Shown here: positions 6,300 through 60,100 of the stretch, in pieces
How the letters are laid out: every line of letters begins with the position of its first letter
Numbering within the stretch: position 1 is the stretch's first letter
Source: Candidatus Omnitrophota bacterium
GTDB lineage: Bacteria; Omnitrophota; Gorgyraeia; B26-G9
Reading direction: 5' to 3'
Assembly: GCA_043814605.1 (NCBI GenBank)
Contig: JBDRJV010000022.1
Coordinates: forward strand, 149,305 to 213,304
Length of the DNA: 64,000 nt
Notes under the pieces: model-generated
What the model saw: the letters and a program-made list of their open reading frames with translations, nothing else
Told to the model about the DNA's origin: nothing
The model's database searches: none
Translations under genes and position numbers: made by a program

Positions 6300-7631
6300 T
6301 CATTCCGCGGCTTTTAGCCAAAACTCATTGATTAATTCTTCTTTAATTCCTACTTCTTCTTTTTTAAAGTATTTCGCAAACAATTTCCAGGAAATATCCA
6401 GCATTTTATCTATATCAATATTTACATCGATTGCTAAAAGCTCCTGAGCATACTCAAACGCAAAATCAAGGGTTCTCTTATCATAATCGGTTAAATCAAA
6501 TCCGTTTTCCTGTTTAGTTTTAGCATAGGCTGCATCCGCATAAAGCCTGACGCCGGCATTCATAACCTGAGGATGGTCTTTACGGGTTCTTATGCCGATA
6601 ACTAATTGCTTTAACCGGGAAAGGCTGCGGAAAGGATCAACAATAACACAAGATATATCCGTATTCCGTCTTAAAAACAATTGTCCTTCGGTAATATAAC
6701 CTGTATTATCCGGAATCGCATGCGTAATATCTCCCCCGCTAAGCGTGGTTACGGCAATAATTGTGATTGAACCGGATTCAAATTGTGCGGCTTTTTCATA
6801 AATTTTTGCTAGATCACTGTAGAGCGACCCCGGCATACTATCTTTACTGGGAATTTGGTCCATACGATTAGATACAATACTTAAAGCATCGCAGAATAAA
6901 GTCATGTCTGTAAGCAAAACTAAAACTTTTTCTTTTTTCTCAACCGCAAAATATTCCGCAGCCGTAAGCACCATATCCGGAATTAAGAGACGTTCTACTG
7001 GAGGATCGTCATTTGTATTAATAAAACAAGTGATTTTTTCTAAAGCTCCTGCATCTTCAAAAATCCTGCGGTAATATAAATAATCATCATTCGAAAGACC
7101 CATGCCGCCTAAAATTATACGGTCCGCTCCGGCCCGCAAAGCAACATTCGCCATAACTTGATTAAACGGCTGATCCGGATCAGCAAAAAACGGAATTTTC
7201 TGGCCGGTTACTAAAGTATTATTTAAATCAATACCGGCAATTCCCGTACTAATCAATTCTGAAGGCTGTTTACGTCTGACCGGATTAACACTTGCACCGC
7301 CAATAGGAATTTTCTGGCCATCTAAATTTGGGCCTCCGTCAATCGGCTGTCCATAAGCATTAAAAAATCTGCCGGATAAATCCGGACCGACTCTTAAGGT
7401 CGGCGGCTCGCCCAGAAAAACTACGTCCACATTAGTACCAATACCCTGTGTCCCCGAAAAAACCTGCAGAGTAACTAAATCGCCTTGAATTTTTACTACC
7501 TGTGCCGGACGCCCGTCAATTAAAGCCATTTCTTCGTTAGAAATACCACTTGCCCTTAACGCACATGTTGCTTTTGTGATTTGCTCAATTTTTGTGTAAA
7601 CAGTTGTGAATGCCGGTGCCTGGCGTGTCAT
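6300..7631 (-). CDS. ntpB: V/A-type ATPase subunit B.
   Basis: Strong similarity to V/A-ATPase B subunits (TVYTKIEQI..., a non-catalytic P-loop-less nucleotide site, ...SGSITIIAVTTLSGGDITHAIPDNTGYITEGQLFL). The preferred start is the ATG at 7631 (MTRQ...), which has an AAGGAG sequence 8 nt upstream. The track's start at 7661 adds the extension MRSFKKGEKI. Confidence 0.93.
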   Translation of the reverse strand: MTRQAPAFTTVYTKIEQITKATCALRASGISNEEMALIDGRPAQVVKIQGDLVTLQVFSGTQGIGTNVDVVFLGEPPTLRVGPDLSGRFFNAYGQPIDGGPNLDGQKIPIGGASVNPVRRKQPSELISTGIAGIDLNNTLVTGQKIPFFADPDQPFNQVMANVALRAGADRIILGGMGLSNDDYLYYRRIFEDAGALEKITCFINTNDDPPVERLLIPDMVLTAAEYFAVEKKEKVLVLLTDMTLFCDALSIVSNRMDQIPSKDSMPGSLYSDLAKIYEKAAQFESGSITIIAVTTLSGGDITHAIPDNTGYITEGQLFLRRNTDISCVIVDPFRSLSRLKQLVIGIRTRKDHPQVMNAGVRLYADAAYAKTKQENGFDLTDYDKRTLDFAFEYAQELLAIDVNIDIDKMLDISWKLFAKYFKKEEVGIKEELINEFWLKAAE

Positions 7632-7661
7632 GATTTTTTCTCCTTTTTTAAATGAGCGCAT

Positions 7662-7885
7662 AACTTAAGGAGCAAAGCAACTTAAGTTATTTGCGCGAAT
7701 TTATCCCGCAGCTTAAAAGCAAATTATCGCAAGGAAATTTACTTTTGTTTAAGCCAGGGGCAATGAGCACATTACTTAAGAAACAAAGTGATTTAAGTAA
7801 TCGGTGCGAATTAAACCTCGCCATGTTTTCTGGCGGGCAAATTATTTAAGGTAATTTCTAGTATCAGGATAATTACCTTAGCAAA
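7662..7885. repeat. Two tandem, diverged units of about 110 bp, each with a 9-bp-stem hairpin (TAACTTAAG...CTTAAGTTA and TTACTTAAG...TTTAAGTAA). Each hairpin is followed by a GCGAATT-type motif. The pair fills the ntpA-ntpB intergenic gap.
   Basis: Seen directly. The two hairpins differ by a compensatory A-T to T-A swap that preserves pairing. Unit 1 carries GCGAATTTATCCCGCAGCTTA, which recurs at 20368-20388. Unit 2 carries GCGAATTAAACCTCGCCA...TGGCGG, which is related to the 47-bp repeat. Confidence 0.8.
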
Positions 7886-9643
7886 CTATTGAATTTTTCT
7901 TTCCATCAGCGTACTTTGCAATTCATCTTCAAATTTTTTAAACTCCTCGGACTGAAATTCAGAGTAATTCATCTGCCTAATCAGATGAATAATTTTCTTA
8001 AAGTATAATGAAATGTCTCCAAAAGCTTCAAAATCAAATTCGGTCTGACAAATATTATGAATCAAATCAAACATATAGCGTTGTCTATCCATCGGAGTTG
8101 CTTTATCTACATTATCAAAAGCATCCTGCTGCAGGAAACAAAAATCCACAAGTTCTGATTTCCAGAACCTCTGGTGATATTCAACCGGGACGCTATCATC
8201 CCCTAAAATATTTATCTGGTCATAAGCTTCTTTGCCGCGCAGTAAAATATCTTTAATATATAAAACTTTTTCAACCCAGTGCGGTTCAAAATTCTGATGC
8301 ATATACTCCTGTGCTTCTTTATATTCTAGATATTTGGAATAACTTTCCACTGTATCAATTGAGGGGTAGCGTTTACTATCCGCCCTTTTTTGTGAAAGCG
8401 CATAAAAACAACGGGCAACTTTTTTTGTAGATTCAGTTACCGGTTCTTTTAAATTACCACCGGCCGGGCTTACCGTACCAATAAAAGTAACCGATCCGGT
8501 TTTACCGTGATTAAGTTCTATGAGTCCAGCCCGAGAATAAAAATTAGCCACAATTGCAGTTAAATCCATGGGAAAAGCATCTGGCCCGGGAAGTTCTTCC
8601 ATCCGGTTTGACATTTCTCTCAAGGCTTGAGCCCAGCGTGAAGTTGAATCAGCTAAAAGTAAAATTTTCAGACCCATCTGCCGGTAATATTCAGCAATGG
8701 TCATGGCTGTATAAACAGAAGCTTCCCGTGCTGCTACCGGCATATTCGAAGTATTACAAATTATTATTGTCCGCTCGATTAATTTACGGCCTGTATTCGG
8801 ATCATCTAATTCTGGAAATTCTTTAAAAATCGCTACCACTTCATTGGCTCTTTCCCCACAAGCACAAACAATAACCATATCCACCTGGGCATTAGCCGCA
8901 ATAATATGCTGTAAAACAGTCTTGCCGCAACCAAAAGGTCCAGGGATAAATCCCGTACCGCCTTCAACAATCGGATTAACTGTATCAATAAGCCGGACTC
9001 CAGTTTGCAATGGTTTATACGCCACCAGTTTGTGCGCATAAGCACGTATCGGAACTTTTATTGGCCAGCGCTGGGACATGAACACTTCTTGGAGCTGTCC
9101 TTCTGAATCCTTTAACACCGCGATTTTATCTTTAACAGTATAGTCTCCCTTTTCCGCCAGAGAATCAATATGCCAAACACCTTCCAGCATAAAAGGAACC
9201 ATGATTTTATGTTTTATCCAATTCTCATTTACCTCACCCAGCCAATCACCGGCCTGTACACGATCTCCTTTTTTGGCTAAAGGGGAAAAACCCCATTTTT
9301 TCTCATAAGAAAAAGCTGTGGTTTTTTCCCCTCTTTTTAAAAACACACCGGTCATTGACTCTAAATCACCTTGCAATCCATCATATTTTTTAGATAAAAG
9401 CCCGGGCCCCAGTTCAACTTCCAGCATATGCTCGGTAAATTCCACAGGAGTTCCTGTTTTTAAACCGCGGGTGCTTTCAAAAACCTGGGCAAAAACCCGC
9501 TCGCCCTGGATTTTAATCACTTCGGCCTTTAACTGCACATTATCCAAACTAACATAGCATATTTCATTTTGACTTACCGGCCCATCAACTTTAATCGTAA
9601 CCAGGTTCGAGACAACTCCGATAATTATTCCTTTTGTGGACAT
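7886..9643 (-). CDS. ntpA: V/A-type ATPase catalytic subunit A.
   Basis: 585 aa with the Walker A motif GPFGCGKTVLQ. It also has the non-homologous insert typical of A subunits and strong overall similarity to A-subunit sequences. Confidence 0.95.
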   Translation of the reverse strand: MSTKGIIIGVVSNLVTIKVDGPVSQNEICYVSLDNVQLKAEVIKIQGERVFAQVFESTRGLKTGTPVEFTEHMLEVELGPGLLSKKYDGLQGDLESMTGVFLKRGEKTTAFSYEKKWGFSPLAKKGDRVQAGDWLGEVNENWIKHKIMVPFMLEGVWHIDSLAEKGDYTVKDKIAVLKDSEGQLQEVFMSQRWPIKVPIRAYAHKLVAYKPLQTGVRLIDTVNPIVEGGTGFIPGPFGCGKTVLQHIIAANAQVDMVIVCACGERANEVVAIFKEFPELDDPNTGRKLIERTIIICNTSNMPVAAREASVYTAMTIAEYYRQMGLKILLLADSTSRWAQALREMSNRMEELPGPDAFPMDLTAIVANFYSRAGLIELNHGKTGSVTFIGTVSPAGGNLKEPVTESTKKVARCFYALSQKRADSKRYPSIDTVESYSKYLEYKEAQEYMHQNFEPHWVEKVLYIKDILLRGKEAYDQINILGDDSVPVEYHQRFWKSELVDFCFLQQDAFDNVDKATPMDRQRYMFDLIHNICQTEFDFEAFGDISLYFKKIIHLIRQMNYSEFQSEEFKKFEDELQSTLMERKIQ

Positions 9644-17596: not shown

Positions 17597-17768
17597 ATTT
17601 AGTAGTCAGCATTTAGACTTCTGTGTTTTTAGTAGTTAAAACAGATGTAAAAGTATACCATACCACAGAGTTTTATGCAAACGAAACTAAATTTGTATCT
17701 TCTTTATTTGCAAATAGTTACAAACTAAAATATGTCTTAAAAATAAAAATTTAACAAACGAAAGAAAA

Positions 17769-18368
17769 TTAGGCCAGCATTCCTTTTATCGGCTGGAAAC
17801 TTCTACGGTGGATTGGACAAGGGCCATGCTCAAAAATTGCCTGGGTATGAGCTTTTGTACCATAGCCTTTATGCTGAGCAAACCCGTACTCTGGATATAT
17901 TTTATCAAATTCCCGCATTAAAGAATCCCGCACAACCTTAGCAATAATGGAAGCACAGGCAATAGAAATACTTTTAGCATCACCGTTGATAATGCCACTA
18001 CAAGGATAATTTAAATTCGGAGTGTGTGGGCCATCAATCAATACCCAATCAGGTTTTGGTTCTAGTTGATCGACTGCCTGCTGCATTGCTTTTAAAGTAG
18101 CCTGGAGAATATTTAAGGTATCAATTTCTTTTTCATCAACTATCGAATAAGCAAACTGAGAATTTTCCGTGATTTCCTGGTAGGCTTTTTCTCTCTGTAA
18201 AGAGGTTAATATTTTAGAATCAGCAATTTTTTCTTTAAATAAATAGTTTGGTGTAACGATTACAGCCGCAGCCACAACCGGCCCAGCCAATGGCCCCCGG
18301 CCTGCTTCATCAACACCCGCAATATTTTTTACACCGCGGGCAAAAAGGTCTTTTTCTAACTGCCACAT
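17769..18368 (-). CDS. rnhB: Ribonuclease HII.
   Basis: The N-terminal motif [20 protein letters not shown] is followed by the characteristic DSK and downstream catalytic residues. The gene lies downstream of rplS, as in the conserved cluster. Confidence 0.95.
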
Positions 18369-18388
18369 TTTATGATGACCTTCAGCGT

Positions 18389-18763
18389 TTAAGATTCCAG
18401 TTCCTTTTTTTCGGTAATTTTGGTTGCTTTTTTACCTTTGCGGCCTCTTAAATAATACAATTTTGCCCGGCGCACTTTACCTTTTCTTACTACTTCCACC
18501 TTATCGATTATCGGAGATTGAACCGGGAAAACCCGTTCTACTCCTTCTCCGTAAGAAATACGTCGGACTGTAAATGTTTTGCTTGCGCCAGAACCTTTTT
18601 TATTAATCACAATACCTTCAAATGACTGGATACGCACTTTACCCTCTTCTTCCGGAATTTTTACATATACTTTTACCGTATCTCCGGGACTAAATTCAGC
18701 TATTTTTTTGTTTTCGTTTACTTCTTTTTTCTGTGTATTAGACACTTTCTCTTCCTCCTTCAT
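18389..18763 (-). CDS. rplS: 50S ribosomal protein L19.
   Basis: Core L19 sequence is present: [10 protein letters not shown]...[10 protein letters not shown]...[43 protein letters not shown]. An alternative start is the GTG at 18745, which has an AAGGAGG sequence 8 nt upstream. The ATG at 18763 has no Shine-Dalgarno sequence. Confidence 0.93.
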
Positions 18764-18771
18764 GTATGTAA

Positions 18772-18793
18772 ATTATAGGCCTTTAGGCCGTCT
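18772..18793 (-). promoter_or_regulatory. Putative rplS promoter. A TATAAT -10 box (minus strand, 18777-18772) sits directly after a conserved GACGGCCTAAAGGCC palindrome module.
   Basis: The minus-strand sequence reads TTCGTAGACGGCCTAAAGGCCTATAATTTACATACATG. The same 25-nt module occurs upstream of rpsP with a single mismatch. Confidence 0.4.
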
Positions 18794-18988
18794 ACGAATT
18801 AAGTCTCGCCACTGTCCACTTCTCTGAGTTTACTTGGCGGACGAATTAAGTCTCGCCACTGTCCACTTCTCTGAGCTTACTTGGCGGACGAATTAAGTCT
18901 CGCCACTGTCCACTTCTCTGAGCTTACTTGGCGGACGAATTAAGTCTCGCCACTGTCTACTTCTCTGAGTTTACTTGGCGGACGAATT
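18794..18988. repeat. Tandem direct repeat of four copies of a 47-bp unit (ACGAATTAAGTCTCGCCACTGTCCACTTCTCTGAGTTTACTTGGCGG) plus a partial fifth copy.
   Basis: Seen directly in the sequence. Units start at 18794, 18841, 18888 and 18935, and copies differ by 1-2 point changes (T/C at GAGTT/GAGCT, CC/CT). There are no spacers between units. The repeat lies in the trmD-rplS intergenic region. Confidence 0.92.
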
Positions 18989-18997
18989 CATTGTTAA

Positions 18998-19663
18998 TTA
19001 TTCTAAAAGGTCTTTTCTTCTTAATCTGGTTCTTTTCAGGGATTGCTGTTTACGCCACTTTTCTATTTTCTTATGGTCACCGGAAATAATAATTTCCGGA
19101 ACTCTTAAATTTCGGTAAACTTGAGGTCTGGTATACTGCGGGTATTCTAGTAAATTATTTGAGAAAGATTCTTCCGCTAATGAATCTTTCTCACCTAAAA
19201 CCCCCGGAATAAGTCTGGTCACGGAATCTATAATCACCATTGCCGGGATTTCACCGCAAGTTAAAATATAATCCCCAATAGAAATTTCTTCGTCACAAAG
19301 TGTTCTAATCCGCTCATCAAAACCTTCGTAGTGGCCGCAAATTAGCAGTAAATGTTTATATTTTAAAAGTTGTTTTGCTTTTTTCTGATGAAATTTTTGT
19401 CCCTGAGGCGTAAGCAAAACCACATGTGTTTTCTGTTTACAAAGATCATCGCAGGCCTCATATACAGGCTCTGGTTTTATGATCATTCCCGGACCGCCGC
19501 CAAATGGTTTATCATCAACTGTTTTACGTTTATCATGCGTCCAGTGACGCAAATTAAAAATATTGATTTTTACTTTTTTCTTTTCTTGAGCCCTTTTTAA
19601 AATTGACTCTTTTAAAATCCCATTAAACATCTCTGGGAATAATGTTAAAATATCAATTTGCAT
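18998..19663 (-). CDS. trmD: tRNA (guanine37-N1)-methyltransferase.
   Basis: The N-terminus MQIDILTLFPEMF and the blocks RHWTHDKRKTVDDKPFGGGPGM and DDLCKQKTHVVLLTPQG match the TrmD SPOUT signature. Confidence 0.95.
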   Translation of the reverse strand: MQIDILTLFPEMFNGILKESILKRAQEKKKVKINIFNLRHWTHDKRKTVDDKPFGGGPGMIIKPEPVYEACDDLCKQKTHVVLLTPQGQKFHQKKAKQLLKYKHLLLICGHYEGFDERIRTLCDEEISIGDYILTCGEIPAMVIIDSVTRLIPGVLGEKDSLAEESFSNNLLEYPQYTRPQVYRNLRVPEIIISGDHKKIEKWRKQQSLKRTRLRRKDLLE

Positions 19664-19680
19664 AAGCGTATTCTATACTT

Positions 19681-20040
19681 TTAACGGCTTTTTATTCTAA
19701 CTTTTTCTTTTTTAGTTTCTACGGCTTGATCCCTATAGCTTTTATCCAGCTTTTCCAACCGTCTTAAGGCATGTTTGCCTTCTTTTGTTTCGGGAAAATT
19801 CTCCGCAATTTTTTTGTAATAAAAAACTGCTGTTTGCTTATCTTCTGTGTCATCCGCTAAAGCAGCGGCTTCATTCCAGGAATTTAAATAATATTTCTCT
19901 TCACTTGTTAACGCCGGCATTACTTCTGATAACTCTATCTCTTCTTTATCTTTAGATAAAAAATTTTCAAATGTTTTACATCCCGAAACAGATAAATTGA
20001 CCACGAGCAATAAAACAATAATGATTGATTGAAACATCAT
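19681..20040 (-). CDS. Small lipoprotein with a TPR-like helical domain.
   Basis: A signal peptide followed by a lipobox-like LSVSGC. It sits in the position that rimM or a KH-domain protein normally occupies between rpsP and trmD. Its ATG overlaps the rpsP stop as TAATG. Confidence 0.55.
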   Translation of the reverse strand: MMFQSIIIVLLLVVNLSVSGCKTFENFLSKDKEEIELSEVMPALTSEEKYYLNSWNEAAALADDTEDKQTAVFYYKKIAENFPETKEGKHALRRLEKLDKSYRDQAVETKKEKVRIKSR

Positions 20041-20303
20041 TAGTTCCCCTTTTTTACTTTTAATGGAATTTTTTTATTTTTAAAAATACTTTTTACAGTT
20101 GCTGACGGCTTTGCTCCCACACTTAGCCAATGCAAAACTCTTTCTTCTTTTATTTCCACTAAAGCCGGTTTTTTTGACGGATCATAAAGCCCAACTTGTT
20201 CGATAAAACGGCCCTCACGAGGTCGATATTGTTCAATAACAACAATTTTATGATGCGGTTTTCTTTTCGAACCCATTCTTGACAAACGAATAACTACTGC
20301 CAC
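20040..20303 (-). CDS. rpsP: 30S ribosomal protein S16.
   Basis: The N-terminus (M)AVVIRLSRMGSKRKPHHKIVV and the motif GLYDP match the canonical S16 sequence. The start codon is GTG, with a perfect AAGGAGGTG Shine-Dalgarno sequence 5 nt upstream. Confidence 0.95.
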   Translation of the reverse strand: MAVVIRLSRMGSKRKPHHKIVVIEQYRPREGRFIEQVGLYDPSKKPALVEIKEERVLHWLSVGAKPSATVKSIFKNKKIPLKVKKGN

Positions 20304-20330
20304 TTTCTCACCTCCTTTAAATGAGCAGAT

Positions 20331-20351
20331 AATTTACGCTTTGCGTAAATT
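20331..20351 (-). other. Perfect 9-bp stem with a 3-nt loop (AATTTACGC-TTT-GCGTAAATT) at the predicted 5' end of the rpsP leader.
   Basis: Seen directly. The hairpin abuts or overlaps the putative -10 box and lies about 25 nt upstream of the Shine-Dalgarno sequence. This placement is typical of a 5'-terminal stabilising stem-loop or an r-protein operator. Confidence 0.4.
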
Positions 20352-20378
20352 TTAGGCCTTTAGGCCGTCTGCGAATTT
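20349..20378 (-). promoter_or_regulatory. Putative rpsP promoter. A TAAAAT -10 box (minus strand, 20354-20349) is preceded by the same GACGGCCTAAAGGCC module found upstream of rplS.
   Basis: The minus-strand sequence reads TTCGCAGACGGCCTAAAGGCCTAAAATTTACGC. It is 24 of 25 identical to the rplS-upstream module. Confidence 0.4.
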
Positions 20379-20552
20379 ATCCCGAAGCTTACCCTGAGAA
20401 ATGCGTTGCATTTCCAGGACTTAGTCCCTGAAATTGTTCTTACAATTTCTAGGGGTGCGGAAAATTTCAAAGAAATTTTCAAATGTTTAAGCTTTGGGGA
20501 AATAAACTTATTTCTAAGCTATCTCTTAAATCATTATTTCAAAAATTTTCCC

Positions 20553-21815
20553 TTATTCCTTTACCCTCTTTATTTTTGCCCCTACTTTTTCTAATTTTTC
20601 TTCTATTTTTTCATATCCTCGGTCAAGGTGGTAAATTCTAGAAATTTCAGTTTTTCCCCGTGCTACAAGCCCGGCTAAAACTAAAGCTGCCGATGCTCTT
20701 AAATCTGAAGCCATGACTGGTGCCCCGCTAAGTTTTTTAACTCCCTTAACAATTGCACTAGCTCCTTCTAAAAATATTTCTGCGCCCATTCGATTAAGCT
20801 CACTCACGTGCATAAATCGATCCGGAAAAATTTTTTCAGTTAAAACACTAATCCCGTCACTAATACAGGATAATGCCATCATTTGCGCCTGCATATCCGT
20901 AGCAAATCCCGGATAAGGCAAAGTTGTAATATCTACTGGTTTTAAAGAACTTCTTCTTTTTACAATAATATTATTGTTTTGCTCTTTAATTTTTATGCCA
21001 ACTTGAGCTAACTTATCCACAAGTGCGGATAAATGAGCTAAATTAGCTTTTTTAATGATTAATTCTCCCCCGGTAATTGCGGCTGCCAGAATATGTGTAC
21101 CGGTTTCAATCCGGTCCGGAATAATTGAATAACTAGTCCCATTTAAATGCTTTACTCCTTCTATTTCAATAAGCGGCGTTCCCTGGCCTTTTATTTTAGC
21201 TCCCATTTTCACTAAAAAATCAGCCAGGTCAACTATTTCTGGCTCACAAGCTGCATTTTCAATCAGTGTCTGGCCTCTGGCTAAAACCGCACTCATTAAT
21301 ACATTGGAAGTTGCTAAAACACTGGAACCATACGCTCCGCCTAAAAATACATTAGCACCTCTTAATTTCTTGGCTTCTGCAACAATATACCCATGTTCTA
21401 TTTTTATCTTAGCGCCTAATGTACGTAATCCTTTCAAATGTAAATCAACCGGCCGCTGTCCAATTATACATCCTCCAGGCATAGATACCCGGGCTTGCTT
21501 GTGCCGGGCCAAAAGAGGACCTAAAACACAAATCGAAGCCCGCATTGTACTCACTAATTTATAGTCTGCAATAAACTGTTTGCATTTTTTCGGCTCCACA
21601 ATAACTTTATTGCCATCCATCTGTGTTTTTGCACCTAAGGCACGCAAAATTTTAAGCATTGTCAAGACATCGCGTAAAACCGGCACATTTTTAATCACAC
21701 ATTTTTCTTCTGTCAATAAAGTAGCCGCTAAAATCGGCAGGGCAGCATTTTTTGCCCCGCTGATTTCAATTTCTCCTTTTAAAGGAACTCCTCCTTCAAT
21801 AATAATCTTATCCAT
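20553..21815 (-). CDS. murA: UDP-N-acetylglucosamine 1-carboxyvinyltransferase.
   Basis: The N-terminus MDKIIIEGG.PL.GEI.ISGAKNAALPILAA matches MurA, and the active-site Cys region and overall length fit. The likely start is MDKIII at 21815; the track's longer start is at 21830. Confidence 0.93.
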   Translation of the reverse strand: MDKIIIEGGVPLKGEIEISGAKNAALPILAATLLTEEKCVIKNVPVLRDVLTMLKILRALGAKTQMDGNKVIVEPKKCKQFIADYKLVSTMRASICVLGPLLARHKQARVSMPGGCIIGQRPVDLHLKGLRTLGAKIKIEHGYIVAEAKKLRGANVFLGGAYGSSVLATSNVLMSAVLARGQTLIENAACEPEIVDLADFLVKMGAKIKGQGTPLIEIEGVKHLNGTSYSIIPDRIETGTHILAAAITGGELIIKKANLAHLSALVDKLAQVGIKIKEQNNNIIVKRRSSLKPVDITTLPYPGFATDMQAQMMALSCISDGISVLTEKIFPDRFMHVSELNRMGAEIFLEGASAIVKGVKKLSGAPVMASDLRASAALVLAGLVARGKTEISRIYHLDRGYEKIEEKLEKVGAKIKRVKE

Positions 21816-37488: not shown

Positions 37489-39216
37489 TTATACATAACC
37501 TAAAGTAACATTCGCTAATTCCTCGATTGTCGTTTTCCCGGCAAATACTTTTAAAAGCCCATCATCGCGTAATGTCCGCATCCCATTTTTGATGGCTTGC
37601 TCTCTTAAACGCCCGACAGGAGCTTGATCTAAAATTAACGAACGCAAATCCTCATCTAAAACCAATAATTCAAAAATCCCAATTCTTCCTTTATAGCCTG
37701 TATTGCTGCATAAATTACAACCCCGGCCTTGATAAAATTTTTTATTCCCTAATTCCTTTAATCTTAGATCAAGCTCATCTAATTCTTTTTGCGCCGGGGT
37801 ATATTCATATTTACACTTATTACAAATACAGCGGACCAAACGCTGCGCCAGGATTGCCTCAACAGCAGAAGCAATTAAAAACGGCTCAACTCCCATATCC
37901 ACAAGCCGAGTTATCGCAGAAGGGGCATCATTTGTATGCAAGGTTGAGAAAACAAGGTGTCCGGTTAAGGAAGCATGGATTGCCATTTGCACAGTTTCTG
38001 CATCCCTAATTTCACCAACCATAATTACATCCGGATCTTGACGTAAAATATGACGCAAGGCAACGGGAAATGTAAGATTTATTTTTGGCCTGACCGAAAC
38101 CTGAATCAGGCCGGCTAAATCAAATTCCACCGGATCTTCAACCGTTATTATTTTTTGTTCAATTGTATTAATACTGCTCAGCGCAGAATATTGTGTTGTG
38201 GTTTTACCGCAGCCTGTGGGCCCGGTGCTTAAAATAATTCCGAAAGGTTTTTTAATTAAATTTTTTATTTTTTGCTTTATATCTGCTTCAAATCCTAATT
38301 CCTCGATAGACAGTTCCACTGTAGCTTTATCCAAAATACGAATGACCACGCTTTCCCCGAAAATCGTCGGTAATGTTGAAATTCTTAAATCTACCATTCT
38401 GCCGCCAATTCTGATTAAAGTCCTTCCATCTTGAGGCAGCCGTGTTTCCGCAATATTTAAATTTGTAATTACTTTAATGCGGGATGTAATTGCCCGATGC
38501 AATGATTTTGGCGGACAAACAATATCATAAAGCAATCCGTCTAAACGGTAACGGATCTTAAATTCATCTTGAAACGGTTCAAAGTGAATATCCGAAGCTT
38601 TATTGCGAATTGCCTGGATTAAAATAAAATTGATTAATTTAACAATCGGCAGCTGCGATGCCATCTCTTCAATGTTTTCAATCTTTTCTGTCTCATCAAT
38701 TAATTCCGGAACTGTTTCTTTAATCTCAGAAAAAATATCATCAACACTTTCGACTTCCTGAGCATAATATTTTTTTAATGTTTGAGAAATACTTGTAGGG
38801 GAAGCGATTTTTCCTTTTATGCTACAGTTAAACATAAACCTTAAATCATCAATAATACTAAAATTTAAAGGATCGGAAGTCGCCACTGTGAGGATGTTAT
38901 TTTTAAAACTAATCGGAACAATATTATAAAGACGCGCCACGGAACCAGGAACTTTATCTATAGCTTGGCGGTCAATGGAAATTTTTTCCAAATCCACAAT
39001 TTCCATTTTAGTTTGTACTCCTAGTGCCTTAAGCAGCTGGTTTTCATTAAGATAGCCAAGATTTACTAAAATTTGCCCTAAAGGCAAACCGCTCGTTTTT
39101 TGATTTTCCAGTCCTTCAGATAATGCCTCCGGGCTGATTAAACCTCTCTCTTTTAAGATATGTCCGATTGTTTTAAAACGAAAATTAGTTTCCATGTTCC
39201 ATGCCTCATGTTCCAA
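37489..39216 (-). CDS. pilB: Type IV pilus assembly (extension) ATPase PilB.
   Basis: An N-terminal GSPII_E domain is followed by the Walker A motif GPTGCGKTTT, the Asp and His boxes, and a tetracysteine zinc motif (CNKC...CNLC). Confidence 0.9.
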   Translation of the reverse strand: MEHEAWNMETNFRFKTIGHILKERGLISPEALSEGLENQKTSGLPLGQILVNLGYLNENQLLKALGVQTKMEIVDLEKISIDRQAIDKVPGSVARLYNIVPISFKNNILTVATSDPLNFSIIDDLRFMFNCSIKGKIASPTSISQTLKKYYAQEVESVDDIFSEIKETVPELIDETEKIENIEEMASQLPIVKLINFILIQAIRNKASDIHFEPFQDEFKIRYRLDGLLYDIVCPPKSLHRAITSRIKVITNLNIAETRLPQDGRTLIRIGGRMVDLRISTLPTIFGESVVIRILDKATVELSIEELGFEADIKQKIKNLIKKPFGIILSTGPTGCGKTTTQYSALSSINTIEQKIITVEDPVEFDLAGLIQVSVRPKINLTFPVALRHILRQDPDVIMVGEIRDAETVQMAIHASLTGHLVFSTLHTNDAPSAITRLVDMGVEPFLIASAVEAILAQRLVRCICNKCKYEYTPAQKELDELDLRLKELGNKKFYQGRGCNLCSNTGYKGRIGIFELLVLDEDLRSLILDQAPVGRLREQAIKNGMRTLRDDGLLKVFAGKTTIEELANVTLGYV

Positions 39217-39271: not shown

Positions 39272-40336
39272 TTACCCTCTGCCTTGTACTTTTAATTTCA
39301 TTTGATCCGGATCAAATGCTTTTGAGATTGCATCCTCAGGACGAATTAAACCTTTAGAATACAATTCAAATAAAGACGAATCAAACGGTTTCATGCCGAA
39401 TTTAGCACCTGTTTGTAAATCAGATGTGATCCGATAAGTTTTTCTTTCGCGAATCAGGTTTTGAATTGATGGAGTGTTAATCATAATTTCGAATGCTCCC
39501 ACTCGGCCGCGGCCTGAGGCTTTAACAATAAGCTGTTGTGAAATCACCGCCAGAATAGAAGTGGAAAGCTGTGTTCTGATCTGCTCTTGTTGCTCATGCG
39601 GAAAAACATCAATAATCCTATCCACTGTAGATGCGGCACTGGTTGTGTGCAAAGTTGCCATAACTAAATGGCCTGTTTCTGCCGCAAGAATTGCCGCTTC
39701 AATTGTCGCTAAATCACGCATTTCTCCAACGAGAATAACATCGGGATTTTGTCTTAACCCTTTAATTAAAGCTTCACTAAAACTGGGCACATCCACCCCT
39801 AATTCACGCTGGGTAACAATCCCTTTTTTGTGGGTATGATAATATTCAATCGGGTCCTCAATTGTAATTATGTGACAATCCCGTTCTGTATTAATAAAAT
39901 CTGTTATTGTGGCCAGGGTTGTTGTTTTTCCTGAACCGGTTGGCCCGGTAACTAAAATTAATCCTCGCGGCCTGAATAATAACTCCCTGACCACCGGCGG
40001 TAAACCAATCTCTTCAAAGCTTAATAAATGCATAGGAATTAACCGCAGAGTCATTCCATAATGACCCTTTTGTTTATACACAGCCACACGGAATCGAGCA
40101 ACCTTTTCAAAAGCAAAGCCAAAATCAACTCCCCCGACTTCTTGAATCCGCCGCTGGTTTTCTGTACTGGTAATTGATTTCATTAATGTTTCTGTATCAG
40201 AGTGAGTCAGCGGATCATAATTTAAACTCATTAAGGTATTATCAATTCTTAAGGTCGGCGGTTTCCCCACAGTTAAATGCATATCCGATGCATTATGCTT
40301 TACGCACAATTGCAATAATTCTCCAATATCTGACAT
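39272..40336 (-). CDS. pilT: Twitching-motility (retraction) ATPase PilT.
   Basis: 354 aa, with no N-terminal GSPII_E domain. The motifs [24 protein letters not shown] and a C-terminal AIRNLIRE-like motif (SIQNLIRE) are present. Confidence 0.9.
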
Positions 40337-40356
40337 AATTTACCCCCTTTTTCTTA

Positions 40357-40386
40357 AGTAGCGAGTAGCAAGTAGAGAGTAGAGAG
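40357..40386. repeat. Heptamer tandem repeat (AGTAGCG AGTAGCA AGTAGAG AGTAGAG) immediately upstream of the pilT ribosome-binding site.
   Basis: Seen directly. Its first 14 nt are the inverted complement of TGCTACTCGCTAC at 40537-40549. Confidence 0.8.
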
Positions 40387-40559
40387 AAAAAAGTTTTTCA
40401 CTTTTAAATGAAAACACAAGCAACCCTAATCTTACTTACAACTGCCCTCATATTTTTTAAATGAACTTAATATTCTAAACAATTAATTTGTTGCTTTTAT
40501 TCTTGCTCCTTGTTACTCGCTTGCGCCCGCAAGGGTGCTACTCGCTACCAATCAAATAA

Positions 40560-42209
40560 TCAATCCACATCACTCTGCGTTATTCTGACCATCTCCTGAA
40601 ACGAAGTAATCCCGGCTAATACTTTCTCTTGAGCATGTTCTTTTAAAGTCACCATGCCCATAGTTCTGGCTTTTTCACGGATTATATTACTGGGTACTTG
40701 TTCGTGAATTAACCGCCGCATTTGATCATTAAGGACAAGCAGCTCAAAAATCCCTGTACGCCCTAAATACCCAGTATGAGCACACAGGCTACAACCCGCA
40801 GCGCGATAAAGCTGTAGGGATTTAGATTGATCATTTACTTCCAGAATTCTGATTTCATCTTTATGCGCAATATACGGCTGTTTACAATCCGGACAAAGCA
40901 ACCGCACAAGTCTTTGGGCTAAAACTGCCTGTAACGTAGCCGAAACCATATACGGTTTTATGCCCATATCCACTAGCCGGGTTATTGCCGAAGGCGCATC
41001 ATTAGTATGCAATGTACTAAAAATTAAATGCCCGGTCAGGGCTGATTGCACAGAAATTTTAGCTGTTTCTAAATCGCGTATTTCCCCCACCATAATTATA
41101 TCCGGCGCTTGACGCAGCATTGAACGTAAAACCCGCGCAAAAGTTAATCCGATTTGGTTTTTTATCTGCACCTGGTTAATTCCGTTAATTTGATATTCAA
41201 CCGGATCTTCAGTTGTTAAAATTTTCTTTTTTGATCTATCCACACTACTTAACACTGCATACAAAGTAGTACTTTTCCCGGAACCGGTGGGCCCGGTAAT
41301 TAAAATAATCCCATTAGGTAAATTGATGATTTCATCAAAAATGCTGCGTTGTTTCGGTAAAAATCCTAATTCTTCCAAAGACATAATCCGTTTATCTAAA
41401 ATTCTCATTACTACACTTTCACCGTAATAAGCCGGCAGAGTAGAAATTCTTAAATCAAATTCTCGATTATCCACAACTGTCCTGATCCGGCCGTCTTGCG
41501 GTAAACGTTTTTCCGCAATATTCATCCCGGACATCAATTTTATCCGGCTAATAATTGAAGCTTGTAATTTTTTTTCCGGAGATTCAATCTCCCGTAAAAC
41601 TCCGTCAATTCTAAATCTAATTCTTAATTGATGATTCATCGGTTCGATATGGATATCACTTGCTCTACGTTTATAAGCATCAGAAATCAGCATATTTACT
41701 AAATGAATAACCGGAGCATCATTAATAACTTCTTGTTCGTTATCAAGATCTACGGAAGGGGAATCAATATCTGCCTGAATTGGATAATATTTTTCCAACA
41801 AATTATCCATTTTATGATTCGGGATTAATTCTGCTTCTAATGAAAACCCTAACGTTTTTTCAAAATATTCTAAAGACAAAAAATTTAACGGATTATCAAA
41901 AACAACCAGAATTTTCTCTCCATTTTTTGATAAAGGAAAGATCCTGTAACGATTAGCAAAAAAAGGATTGATTAATTCTTGTATTTCTGTACTTTGTGCG
42001 TATTCTTCGGGATTAACATAACTTAACCCCAATTCCTGGATAACTAAATCTTTTAAATTCTCATCACAATTTATATTTAGCTGTTGGAAAATATGATCAA
42101 TGCGTTCTTGTGAACGCTGTTGCGTTTGTTCTGCCTGCTGTAATTGCTCGCAGGTAATAACTCCCTTAGCCATTAATAATTCACTGATAAATTTTTGTTT
42201 ATTCGGCAT
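40560..42209 (-). CDS. Second PilB/GspE-family secretion ATPase.
   Basis: An N-terminal GSPII_E domain is followed by the Walker A motif GPTGSGKSTTL and a zinc motif (CPDC...CSLC). The start overlaps the tpiA stop by 11 nt. Confidence 0.85.
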   Translation of the reverse strand: MPNKQKFISELLMAKGVITCEQLQQAEQTQQRSQERIDHIFQQLNINCDENLKDLVIQELGLSYVNPEEYAQSTEIQELINPFFANRYRIFPLSKNGEKILVVFDNPLNFLSLEYFEKTLGFSLEAELIPNHKMDNLLEKYYPIQADIDSPSVDLDNEQEVINDAPVIHLVNMLISDAYKRRASDIHIEPMNHQLRIRFRIDGVLREIESPEKKLQASIISRIKLMSGMNIAEKRLPQDGRIRTVVDNREFDLRISTLPAYYGESVVMRILDKRIMSLEELGFLPKQRSIFDEIINLPNGIILITGPTGSGKSTTLYAVLSSVDRSKKKILTTEDPVEYQINGINQVQIKNQIGLTFARVLRSMLRQAPDIIMVGEIRDLETAKISVQSALTGHLIFSTLHTNDAPSAITRLVDMGIKPYMVSATLQAVLAQRLVRLLCPDCKQPYIAHKDEIRILEVNDQSKSLQLYRAAGCSLCAHTGYLGRTGIFELLVLNDQMRRLIHEQVPSNIIREKARTMGMVTLKEHAQEKVLAGITSFQEMVRITQSDVD

Positions 42210-42975
42210 CTTTTGTATCTTGTGTACAGGCTTGTACCAATTGGATAAAAGACTCAGCCTTTAAGCTAGCACCACCCACTAATGCCCCATCAATATCCGG
42301 CTGATTGATTAAAGTTTTAATATTTTCCGGGTTAACACTGCCCCCGTATTGAATCCTCAAATCATCGGCAATATCTTTACCAAAATTATCGGCAATTAGT
42401 TTTCTGATAAATTGATGTGCTTCCTGGGCTTGTTTCGGAGTAGCGTTTTGGCCTGTGCCAATTGCCCATACCGGTTCATAGGCAATAATAATATTTTCCA
42501 AATCATCAGCACTTAGTCCCTCTAACGCTCCCTGAACATGGTCACGGATTACGTCAAATGTTTTATTTGTCTGACGTTCTTCCAGTTTCTCCCCCACACA
42601 AACAATTGGTTTTAAACCAGCTTTTAAAGCAGCTTTAATTTTTTTGTTTACATTTTCATTAGTTTCTTTAAAAATATTACGCCGCTCAGAATGCCCGATG
42701 ATCACATATTCACAATGGACATCTTTCAACATAATGGGCGAAATCTCACCTGTAAAAGCACCTTTTTCTTCCCAAAAAAGATTCTGAGCTCCTAACTTAA
42801 CATTCGATCCATCAATCGCTTCATTAACACTATAAAGAGCTGTAAAAACAGGACAAACCAATATATCTACATCTTTAATATCTTTAAGCTCCATAGTTAA
42901 TTGTCGCACCAGGTCTAAAGCCTCGGTCACGGTTTTGTTCATTTTCCAGTTACCCGCAATAATTGGTATTCTCAT
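42199..42975 (-). CDS. tpiA: Triosephosphate isomerase.
   Basis: The N-terminus IIAGNWKMN and the motifs IGHSERR and AYEPVWAIGTG match the catalytic Lys, His and Glu signature of triosephosphate isomerase. Confidence 0.95.
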   Translation of the reverse strand: MRIPIIAGNWKMNKTVTEALDLVRQLTMELKDIKDVDILVCPVFTALYSVNEAIDGSNVKLGAQNLFWEEKGAFTGEISPIMLKDVHCEYVIIGHSERRNIFKETNENVNKKIKAALKAGLKPIVCVGEKLEERQTNKTFDVIRDHVQGALEGLSADDLENIIIAYEPVWAIGTGQNATPKQAQEAHQFIRKLIADNFGKDIADDLRIQYGGSVNPENIKTLINQPDIDGALVGGASLKAESFIQLVQACTQDTKDAE

Positions 42976-43032
42976 GTTTTTCCTTTCTTAATGCACATCA
43001 TTTATAGAGCATTAGCGGCATAAATGATCCAT

Positions 43033-43094
43033 GCAAATTAAGTCTCGCCATTGTCCACTTCTTTGAGTTTGCTTGGCGGACGAATTAAGTGTTG
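43033..43094. repeat. Single diverged copy of the 47-bp leader repeat (GCAAATTAAGTCTCGCCATTGTCCACTTCTTTGAGTTTGCTTGGCGG), followed by the ACGAATTAAG start of a second unit.
   Basis: It is about 90% identical to the tandem units at 18794-18988. It lies about 55 nt upstream of the tpiA start, between the pilin gene and tpiA. Confidence 0.85.
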
Positions 43095-43228
43095 AATCTT
43101 TTAGAATAAGATATCTGGTTTAAATAATTTAAGCTAATACTGCCTTAATCCTTCGACTCCCTCTGGCCGCTCAGAATAATTTCGATCATAAAACTTACAT
43201 CATTTTATTCGATAAGTTTTAATCTTAC

Positions 43229-43687
43229 TTACCAACTTTTTATATCATCACCTAATCCATTTTCATCAATTAAATTTGGCCCGCTGGACCAAATTCTATA
43301 AGGTGGCAAACTATCTAAATTATAATATAAATCATTTCCCCAAGAATCAATCACAGTTGCGTTCGGAATCGTGGCGTTTAAATCCTCTGGTTTAAAACTC
43401 AGATAAGGCCCGTTCCAATCACTAACACTTGAATATGTAGCGGAATCTGCTAATAAATTAACTAAATTTTGATTTCCGCTGCCGGGATAAGCCCCAAAAT
43501 CAACATGATATAAAGCCAAAGCTGTTTCTAAAGCAGCGATCATGGTCTTAGCCTGGTAAATCTTTGCCTTTTTACGGACTAAAGTTCCCCCCCGTGAAAC
43601 CAGCCCCATTAAAATACCTAGAACCGCAATAATAACTAGGATTTCCATAATTGTAAATCCTGATTTAAATATTTTATTATTTTGCAT
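43229..43687 (-). CDS. Prepilin-type pilin or pseudopilin (PilA/GspG-like).
   Basis: The class III signal KSGFTIMEILVIIAVLGIL has the G|F cleavage site and a Glu at +5. The C-terminal region resembles GspG (WNGPYL, DSWGN). Confidence 0.8.
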   Translation of the reverse strand: MQNNKIFKSGFTIMEILVIIAVLGILMGLVSRGGTLVRKKAKIYQAKTMIAALETALALYHVDFGAYPGSGNQNLVNLLADSATYSSVSDWNGPYLSFKPEDLNATIPNATVIDSWGNDLYYNLDSLPPYRIWSSGPNLIDENGLGDDIKSW

Positions 43688-51963: not shown

Positions 51964-52461
51964 TCAATATCGTCGATTTGATTTTATGACAAACTTATTT
52001 ATTTTTAGGCAATCATCCTGAGGCAAATCCAGAAAAGATACAGCAGCCTCATATAAATCATCGGTTTTACTATTAACTCTGACAATCTTGGCTAAACATT
52101 GAAAAGTCCCGTAATTTTTCGGAAGAATTAAAATAATATCAATTACAGCCCCGGGTAATAATTCCTTAGTTGTTTTAAAAAACAAACCTCCGGCGCTAAT
52201 ATTTTTAGTCGTCCCGCTAAATTGCGGCTGGGTCTTTGCTTTTCCCGGTTTAAACACACTATAAAGAACTTTTAACTCAATATCTAAACGTTCATAAATA
52301 CGTTTATCCGCAATTGCCAAAGCTTCTATTTTTTCCGGCTTATACCCCATATCTTTGATTTTTTCGGTTGCCTCCTCATGCGATTCAGCATAGACGATTG
52401 ATTCAATAACAGTGCCAATATTTTTTTTAGCTAAATATTTAAATACTTTCATTTTTTTCAC
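51964..52461 (-). CDS. PilZ-domain protein whose N-terminal ~45 residues resemble the N-terminal cytoplasmic domain of GspF.
   Basis: The PilZ motifs are present: RIYER (RxxxR) and NISAGG ([DN]xSxxG). The N-terminus FKYLAKKNIGTVIESIVYAESHEEATEKIKDMGYKPEKIE aligns with the adjacent GspF N-terminus (about 18 of 40 identical). There is a 4-nt overlap with the upstream gspE-PilZ gene. Confidence 0.72.
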   Translation of the reverse strand: MKKMKVFKYLAKKNIGTVIESIVYAESHEEATEKIKDMGYKPEKIEALAIADKRIYERLDIELKVLYSVFKPGKAKTQPQFSGTTKNISAGGLFFKTTKELLPGAVIDIILILPKNYGTFQCLAKIVRVNSKTDDLYEAAVSFLDLPQDDCLKINKFVIKSNRRY

Positions 52462-54773: not shown

Positions 54774-54794
54774 TCGCTAAACGCTAAGCGCTAA
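54774..54794. repeat. Three tandem heptamers (TCGCTAA ACGCTAA GCGCTAA) just downstream of the atpD stop.
   Basis: Seen directly. On the minus strand the sequence reads TTAGCGC TTAGCGT TTAGCGA. Confidence 0.75.
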
Positions 54795-59970: not shown

Positions 59971-60100
59971 ACAATTTCAGCCATGAAATTGAGTTTATAA
60001 GTTAAAGTGCATAAGTGTGCAGAATATTATTCGTACACACTTATACACTTATATACTCACAAACTAACTCCTGTCTGCCTCCCTGCATTTTATTTTATCT

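Follow-up and report, generated by a model that had tools for sequence, protein, structure and literature searches.

In a 64,000-nt stretch of a Candidatus Omnitrophota bacterium (assembly GCA_043814605.1, contig JBDRJV010000022.1, positions 149,305 to 213,304 of the forward strand; hereafter the window), the gap between trmD and rplS holds four tandem units of 47 nt. This array is a local four-fold amplification of one module, a hairpin (P1) followed by the linker TTAATTCG, of a previously undescribed two-hairpin intergenic repeat family that is absent from Rfam and was not found in the literature. The family is dispersed, modular and palindromic, is restricted to one clade of Candidatus Omnitrophota, has a fold under selection, and stands in a strict relation to the downstream ribosome-binding site. 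With somewhat better than even confidence it is regarded here as a palindromic repeat family of the REP, BIME, BOX or Correia kind that is co-transcribed with its host genes and has been exapted as RNA structure between cistrons or in 5' untranslated regions (5' UTRs).

The array between trmD and rplS

About 53 open reading frames (ORFs) of at least 90 aa are present in the window, all on the minus strand, forming an extreme co-directional gene array; the gene tables of the syntenic loci fetched from relatives have the same one-strand pattern. The minus-strand order around the array is rpsP (20040-20303), a small unannotated ORF, trmD (18998-19663), the array, rplS and rnhB. The identities of the genes flanking the repeats were confirmed (S16, TrmD, L19, RNase HII, V-ATPase A and B, and triosephosphate isomerase, TpiA), and the window TrmD is 100% identical to MFH1459937.1. 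The features of the trmD-rplS gap, which measures 234 nt, are as follows, with matches scored by the covariance models R1 and R2 described below.

18794-18988, minus strand: tandem array of 47-nt units, 4.1 copies, that separates the trmD stop (18998) from rplS, from the repeat finder and a mismatch search
18764-18794, minus strand: truncated module of the second hairpin (P2) in the rplS leader, (TTCG)TAGACGGCCTAAAGGCCTATAATTTACATAC; R1 match 18743-18841, 16.9 bits
18743-18760, minus strand: rplS Shine-Dalgarno (SD) sequence AAGGAGG (18754-18760) and probable GTG start (18743-18745); relatives start rplS with GTG after GGAGG

Tandem Repeats Finder reports the array with a period of 47, 4.1 copies and 97% matches, and a search allowing three mismatches returns four units (18795-18841, 18842-18888, 18889-18935 and 18936-18982) where shuffled sequences give an expectation of 0. 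A first, sequence-only reading of the window had described four perfect tandem units; the number stands, whereas the units are near-perfect, sharing 45-47 of 47 bases with the two inner ones identical. As that reading also stated, all units carry the inverted repeat CGCCA...TGGCG, and a CRISPR array is ruled out, since there are no spacers and the units lie head-to-tail with a start-to-start distance of 47 nt that equals the unit length. On the mRNA strand each unit reads TCCGCCA-[23-nt loop]-TGGCGAGAC, which is hairpin P1 with a bulged A, and then the linker TTAATTCG; RNAfold predicts four hairpins in succession. The copy number may be mis-assembled, as the two inner units of this 195-bp array are identical and the source is a short-read metagenome-assembled genome (MAG).

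The truncated P2 module at the rplS side of the array contains a small GGCC/GGCC hairpin (18778-18789) and is 94% identical over 33 nt to the corresponding segment of the rpsP leader (20345-20377). The ATG at 18761-18763, from which the ORF lister starts rplS, is probably not the true start, because it lies directly 5' of the SD. The array probably arose by slippage or unequal exchange between linker direct repeats flanking P1: such repeats are found on both sides of P1 in the copies before tpiA and ntpB and at locus L004, and would provide the substrate from which a four-fold array is generated.

Architecture of the complete element

The 47-nt unit had been taken for the element as a whole, but it comprises only P1 and the linker. 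The complete element consists, on the mRNA strand, of P1, an A/U-rich linker, P2 and a tail, GCUCAUURAA, that ends at the SD. This layout emerged from a scan of species-representative genomes with a P1-plus-linker pattern, which returned 15 loci. Eight were dismissed as chance matches in high-GC coding DNA, and the seven real loci, all from Omnitrophota or 'PVC group' MAGs, share P1 and linker followed by the long hairpin P2, GYGCUCAUUAAA, GGAGG and a start codon. Further loci were fetched by synteny through TrmD homologues of 64-82% identity, the closest relative being 82% identical, and R1 and R2 were built and run on the window and these syntenic loci. Loci are referred to by L numbers where they must be told apart.

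P1 is a G+C-rich hairpin, CCGCCA-loop-TGGCGAGG in the array units, whose sequence and loop size vary among copies. Variant stems include CGCCC/GGGCG and CCCGCC/GGCGGG, a 17-bp stem around ~70 nt in L113, and a long-range stem in which CCC.AAGCTTAAAC pairs with TAAGCTT.CGGG in the rpsP and ntpB leaders of the window. A motif that had been put forward in its own right, GCGAATTTATCCCG[C/A]AGCTTA, is simply the linker joined to the 3' arm of this long-range variant. Despite the differing P1 sequences, every forward core has a hairpin directly 5' of its linker. Some P1 loops are large and contain TGnTATAAT-like or TTG...TAT strings (L114 1312-1366, with TTGTATAAT at 1340-1348; L116 3720-3785; L117 9020-9080), and internal promoters might ride inside the element by this route.

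P2 is an irregular hairpin of ~20 bp with a conserved 2x2 UC/UC internal loop, and the tail pairs back to the linker. RNAfold places P2 directly after P1 with the SD at the foot of the helix, and predicts for P2 a lower stem UUUAAU/AUUAAA, the UC/UC loop, GCRNN/NNYGC, a bulge, an upper stem of 9-10 bp and a loop of 11-13 nt. In the lower stem the linker is thus paired to the bases that immediately precede the SD.

Some copies are composites, in which a left arm at or overlapping the upstream stop codon is followed by P1 and by a forward arm adjoining the SD. The composite ends, TCAAATGAAGAC... and ...CTCATTGAA/TCATTTGA, form terminal inverted repeats in L113, in L117 and in the window (43237-42982). 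By eye, no direct repeat lies outside the arms of the three L113 composites as a target-site duplication would, and the linker repeats around P1 are internal to the element rather than a target duplication. In places the repeats overlap coding ends by supplying stop codons: the left arm TCAAATGA provides the TGA of polA and rpsP in L113 and L117, and the linker of the first module provides the trmD stop (GTAAATTCGC) at the 3' end of trmD in L114 and L115 (L114 1220-1240).

Covariation of the fold

The predicted fold is borne out by the pattern of substitutions among copies. In an alignment of the whole element (8 copies), 91% of cells are paired, against 32-39% when the partners are slid, and 10 pairs have changed on both sides. 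The core (linker, P2 and tail) could be aligned for 22 copies from 9 genomes, giving 91.3% paired cells against 31-44% with slid partners; 13 of the 20 P2 core pairs carry double changes (88 cells), and none of 500 shuffles reaches the core values. In the lower stem the alternatives TTTAAT/ATTAAA, TTCAAT/ATTGAA and TCAATT/AATTGA replace one another with pairing retained. The fold of the element is therefore under selection.

Position, orientation and genes served

The census with R2 yielded 36 copies, all intergenic, in at least 9 genomes, within ~400 kb biased to one syntenic region. Twenty-six of them have an ORF start codon 4-11 nt past their end, a distance confirmed by an automated check for 23 and taken only from called gene starts for 3. 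Five more are internal modules lying upstream of another module, and the remaining five are reverse copies, every one the left arm of a palindromic composite with a forward arm. Reverse-only copies number 0 against at least 15 forward-only ones, and most copies are single forward arms, with only 5 inverted-arm composites. The distribution is clearly not random in position or strand. The earlier argument that all copies lie on the transcribed strand nevertheless carries no weight as evidence, as all genes of the window are on the minus strand, and it also overlooks the reverse arm at 43174-43237.

At least 10 unrelated genes are served. The genome-scan loci include ntpK, parB, pgk, rplS, a response regulator and genes of unknown function, and the genes are mostly abundant housekeeping ones (S16, L19, L31, the A, B and K genes of the V-ATPase operon, TpiA, Pgk, GlgA and ParB). 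The rpsP leader carries the element in 7 genomes of the clade.

Further copies in the window

A search with the pattern CCGCCA-N5-30-TGGCGAG-NN-TTAATTYG finds 6 matches in the window where 0 are expected, one of them a short-loop version in the ntpA-ntpB gap. The related modules that had been suspected in this gap and upstream of rpsP are confirmed as covariance-model matches, and the single copy said to be about 90% identical to the array units is indeed present before tpiA.

20380-20498, minus strand: P1 of the rpsP leader, long-range variant; CCC.AAGCTTAAAC and TAAGCTT.CGGG form a stem around ~90 nt that contain inner hairpins
20312-20382, minus strand: rpsP leader core, with linker ATAAATTCGC, P2 and tail CTGCTCATTTAAA; R2 22.8 bits, E 0.012
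7847-7880, minus strand: hairpin right after the ntpA stop, TAAGGTAATT...AATTACCTTA, then TAATTTGC
7816-7837, minus strand: short-loop P1, CCCGCCA-GAAAACA-TGGCGAGG; stem as in the 47-nt units, loop of 7 nt
7754-7817, minus strand: core module a of the ntpA-ntpB gap, with linker, P2 and tail GTGCTCATT; R1 87 bits (7744-7837), R2 62.5 bits
7704-7760, minus strand: P1 of module b, long-range variant; CCCC.GGCTTAAAC forms its stem with TTTAAGC.GCGGG
7643-7706, minus strand: core module b, adjoining the ntpB SD (AAAGGAG); R2 75.4 bits; probable ATG start 7629-7631
43174-43237, plus strand: reverse (left) arm of a palindromic composite; R2 28.9 bits, E 5e-4
43034-43080, minus strand: single 47-nt unit before tpiA, long-loop P1 (23-nt loop) and linker TTAATTTG; 42-43 of 47 bases (~90%) shared with the array units
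42982-43044, minus strand: tpiA core, with linker, P2 and tail GTGCATTAAG; R2 60 bits

In the rpsP leader, P2 carries an inserted GGCC hairpin (20355-20366) and an apical stem AATTTACGC/GCGTAAATT, and the core adjoins the SD GGAGG, with a GTG start at 20301-20303. Module a of the ntpA-ntpB gap is an internal copy with no SD after it. The composite at 43237-42982 occupies the gap between a type II secretion system (T2SS) G pseudopilin gene (43229-43687) and tpiA: its reverse arm begins at the stop codon of the pseudopilin gene, its 47-nt unit is flanked by the direct repeat ACTTAATTYG, and its forward core adjoins the SD of tpiA, which has an ATG start at 42973-42975. The longest-ORF starts of ntpB (ATG 7661) and rplS (ATG 18763) fall inside the element or on its SD, and the true starts are likely ATG 7631 and GTG 18745, each 6-9 nt past GGAG(G).

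Distribution and turnover among relatives

The gene order polA-glgA-coaE-rho-rpmE-prfA-prmC-murA-rpsP-x-trmD-rplS-rnhB is kept among relatives while the spacers vary. The sequence-only reading had remarked that the trmD-rplS gap is normally tiny; in several relatives it measures 10-13 nt or the genes overlap, as listed below.

Window: 234 nt
L113: 217 nt
L114: 211 nt
L115: 74 nt
L118: 57 nt
L117 and L122: 10-13 nt
L120, L127 and L128: overlapping genes

L114 and L115 encode identical TrmD proteins, and their gaps differ by a 137-nt indel made up of a large-loop P1 and a 70-nt P2 module that exactly repeats its neighbour. Copies usually have their nearest neighbours in sequence among the non-orthologous copies of the same genome, which points to transposition or gene conversion. 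In the clade MAG JAAEQR01 the gaps are tight across the trmD region, with copies elsewhere (L001; L127 16532-16587). More distant Omnitrophota loci (64-65% TrmD identity) have tight gaps and no model matches. In L118, N runs at ~1400-1510 and ~17640-17740 (contig CAYTGV010000008) are flanked by duplicated sequence; these runs beside intergenic repeats look like scaffolding or masking artefacts.

A metagenome scan with a gapped pattern had no match, one with the 18-mer TGGCGAGRYTTAATTYGC returned 97 loci that, among the matches listed, were all chance or unrelated DNA and mostly coding, and a scan of viral sequences gave a single match, by chance. Rfam has no match at the repeats, either at the gathering score or at E <= 5, and nothing relevant was found in the literature on Omnitrophota repeats or RNA motifs. 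Elsewhere in the window, inside the ntpA coding region (9277-9339), Rfam hairpin models of the plastid psbA 3' UTR match weakly on both strands (E 0.0075 and 0.047, well under the gathering score), probably owing to a mere palindrome.

Possible function and origin

Three broad possibilities had been named for the repeats: a regulator-binding array, a leader RNA structure, or a REP/MITE-like element. The last two hold together, as the family is at once a covarying two-hairpin structure and a set of dispersed palindromes, while the regulator array is unsupported. REP/BIME, ERIC, BOX and Correia repeats act as stability barriers or processing sites in other bacteria. In the favoured reading, the element would likewise form a stable structure between cistrons or in 5' UTRs that punctuates long co-directional operons. 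P1, present four times after trmD, would give the upstream message a 3' barrier or a landmark for processing, and P2 would be a protective 5' helix or RNase III-type duplex that presents the SD of a strongly expressed gene at its foot. The downstream genes so served would be those of S16, L19, L31, V-ATPase, TpiA and Pgk, whose expression would be uncoupled from that of weakly expressed neighbours, for example trmD. The rpsP-rimM-trmD-rplS operon of E. coli yields far more of the ribosomal proteins than of TrmD although all are made from one common transcript, and this imbalance offers a reason why a strong structural boundary should separate trmD from rplS. The element sits in the 5' UTR at L001 and L007, judging by a sigma-70-like promoter (11/12, with a TG extension) found 45-55 nt upstream of P1. 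An SD matching at least 4 of the 5 bases of GGAGG is present in 21 of 23 element-bearing genes and in 13 of 48 other genes of the window (p = 4e-7), the control gene starts being crude longest-ORF calls. The family would most likely have spread as selfish palindromic DNA and then been retained where useful or harmless.

Several points weigh against this reading, the crudeness of those control starts among them. Co-transcription, a function at the RNA level, processing and any effect on translation are deductions from sequence. In compact genomes an insertion survives only between a stop codon and an SD, and adjacency to the SD is therefore no proof of function by itself. Predicted SD accessibility, from pairing probabilities, is the same in element-bearing genes and controls (p = 0.7); the idea that the element exposes the SD made a prediction that failed, and it was given up. 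The element is dispensable, since several relatives have gaps of 10-13 nt at the same sites. Finally, the bias of the census towards one syntenic region limits its reach, and the one-strand arrangement of genes limits the orientation evidence from the window.

Much of the pattern would be explained by a serious rival, judged possible rather than likely, in which the repeats are purely selfish palindromic DNA of the REPIN or MITE type and have no host function. Some transposase gene elsewhere would mobilise them in trans, or recombination would spread them, and only stop-SD gaps would be occupied as other insertions are lethal in these compact genomes, structured RNA being tolerated there with no Rho loading sites exposed. 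This would fit the long terminal inverted arms (TCAAATGAAGAC... / ...CTCATTGAA) that span whole spacers in composites, the closer likeness of copies within a genome than between orthologous sites, the difference in presence or absence between strains with identical TrmD, the many relatives that lack the element at the same sites, and the unchanged SD accessibility. However, the half-elements are strongly asymmetric, and the one-sided retention of forward arms, with no lone reverse arm, is left unexplained. Moreover, the rpsP element is kept in 7 genomes with compensatory change instead of decay, no target-site duplication was seen by eye at the composite ends, and no partner transposase was seen in the loci read, although no systematic search for one was made.

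Rather more doubtful, and entertained here only tentatively, is a stronger form of RNA function, in which P1, the linker and P2 with its UC/UC loop would make up a 'punctuation' module read by a specific nuclease or RNA-binding protein. Polycistronic transcripts would be cut at the module, the translation and stability of each downstream cistron would be set there, and the number of tandem modules, as in the four-fold array, would tune expression. If true, the element would be a bacterial counterpart of the signals for intercistronic processing in organelles.

A boxA-like site for Nus factors is very unlikely. The tail GCUCAUUAAAG resembles boxA (GYTCTTTAANA) and the hairpins before it are placed like boxB in rrn leaders; NusB/NusE bound beside the SD would then bring about antitermination or translational repression, as at E. 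coli suhB. The tail matches at 9 of 11 positions this consensus, which is gamma-proteobacterial, and the suhB boxA lies 6 nt from its SD (PMC5725501). A hairpin followed by a GCUC(U/A)UUAA-type sequence near the SD is the arrangement of Nus signals in rrn leaders, lambda nut and the suhB 5' UTR (PMC5725501). The tail here lies directly beside the SD too, and many of the genes served are translation-related (rpsP, rplS, rpmE). However, boxA is read as a conserved single strand, whereas the tail is paired to the linker and covaries with it even within single genomes (A, U or G at R; pair 6-63). In addition, position 5 is A instead of U in nearly all copies, dozens of unrelated genes are preceded by the tail, and the reverse arms and internal modules have the same tail without an SD or gene.

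P1 as an intrinsic terminator or attenuator is just as improbable. It would be a G+C-rich hairpin followed by UUUAAUU, four in tandem making a strong stop, with the alternative pairing GCGAG/UUCGC as antiterminator. RNAfold gives this alternative hairpin in one copy, and the P1 of L007 is flagged as terminator-like, being the only one to pass a lax terminator scan. No minus-strand call was made in the array or the rpsP leader when 18300-20700 was scanned, however, and most P1 variants are followed by AUAAAUUC, UCAAUUC or UUCGAUUC and not by a U-tract. In L001 and L007, P1 moreover separates a promoter from its gene, and P1 is also found within operons whose genes must be expressed together (ntpA-ntpB).

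There is equally little to recommend a role at the level of DNA, be it an array of sites bound by a transcription factor or a nucleoid protein, or a set of embedded promoters. In its favour are the P1 stem CCGCCA/TGGCGAGG, which is conserved in sequence across four MAGs, a TATAAT in the rplS leader, and the promoter-like strings in some large P1 loops (as in L114 1340-1348). Against it, compensatory changes keep the pairing as the sequence shifts, which indicates a folded single strand and not a duplex site, and P1 sequences differ widely among copies. Promoter-like sites in 18300-20700 occur at chance frequency (8 against 5.7 +/- 2.5 expected), none of them at the rplS-leader TATAAT. A sigma-70 reading of this TATAAT and of TTTACA/TAAATT in the P2 arms was accordingly rejected, the spacers being 13-15 nt or the -35 missing, as was a sigma-54 promoter reading of TGGCGAG-N-TTCGC, whose GG and GC lie, by inspection, 3 nt too far apart.

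Integron attC-like and tRNA-like readings were dropped on account of the core housekeeping genes in conserved synteny, and a gene-specific leader or riboswitch is ruled out by the many unrelated genes served and the lack of an Rfam match.

Relation to known repeat families

The closest parallels are the REP, BIME and REPIN sequences, which are short imperfect palindromes dispersed in the intergenic DNA of operons, co-transcribed, combined into mosaics with linker motifs, present in tandem clusters, and able to form larger hairpins as inverted doublets. REPs are 3' mRNA stabilisers, as in malE-malF. The present family shares no sequence similarity with them, its aligned copies have no GTAG head, its array is directly tandem instead of alternating, and its copies are locked to a downstream SD instead of clustering at 3' ends. 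Furthermore, no RAYT gene was identified, although RAYT was not searched for and 64 kb of the source MAG were covered.

The BOX elements of Streptococcus pneumoniae (boxA-boxB(n)-boxC) are likewise modular and intergenic, with one module, the ~45-nt boxB, repeated directly in tandem a variable number of times between the other modules. Stable RNA structures have been predicted for them near gene starts. They belong to an unrelated phylum and differ in sequence, and in the present family the unit that is amplified folds into a hairpin by itself and the bases preceding the SD are paired to the 3' module. The Correia (NEMIS) elements of Neisseria and ERIC/IRU are MITE-like palindromes, often near start codons, with inverted arms comparable to those of the composites described here. 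They are co-transcribed, and mRNA stability changes when RNase III or RNase E processes their long hairpin. The present family differs in showing no TA or other target duplication, in consisting mostly of single-orientation half-elements and in its strong stem covariation. The L19 leader in Rfam is also a structured RNA directly upstream of rplS or rpsP, but the element has no Rfam match and lies before V-ATPase, glycolytic, parB, glgA and other genes as well, and consequently is not an autoregulatory site for one ribosomal protein.

The Omnitrophota are uncultured and almost nothing is known of how they control gene expression; the element could be the phylum's first cis-acting post-transcriptional signal. 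Were it only selfish, it would still be a new REP/BOX-like family in a phylum without any described. Module copy number could serve as a marker for strain typing. For annotation some caution is called for, as the starts that ORF callers give to ntpB and rplS fall inside the element, and the spacers make the 'intergenic' content seem larger.

Other repeats and genes in the window

A different palindromic intergenic element is found at 40337-40559, upstream of the gene at 39272-40336. Perfect 13-nt terminal inverted repeats, GTAGCGAGTAGCA and TGCTACTCGCTAC (40358-40370 and 40536-40548), span this spacer, which also contains a heptad run, (AGTAGAG) x 4.3, at 40357-40386. Tandem repeats of 7-8 nt lie in spacers just past genes, near the stop codons, at 54775-54794, 60037-60057 and 2959-2998 in the window and at 17543-17577 in L118 (CGCTAAA x 2.9, ACACTTAT x 2.6 and AATGTTA x 5.7, and, in L118, CTGGTTA x 5 past rny). 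With them these genomes may possess a second class of intergenic motif. Three paralogous genes of 550-730 aa (37489-39216, 40560-42209 and 52458-54644) share several conserved blocks (repeat families D4-D7 and D9) and lie near the T2SS-G pseudopilin gene; they may encode secretion or pilus ATPases. The 1226-aa ORF at 60101-63781 contains internal repeats of ~280-300 nt and 582 nt (families D2, D3, D8, D10 and D12) and thus encodes a repetitive-domain protein.

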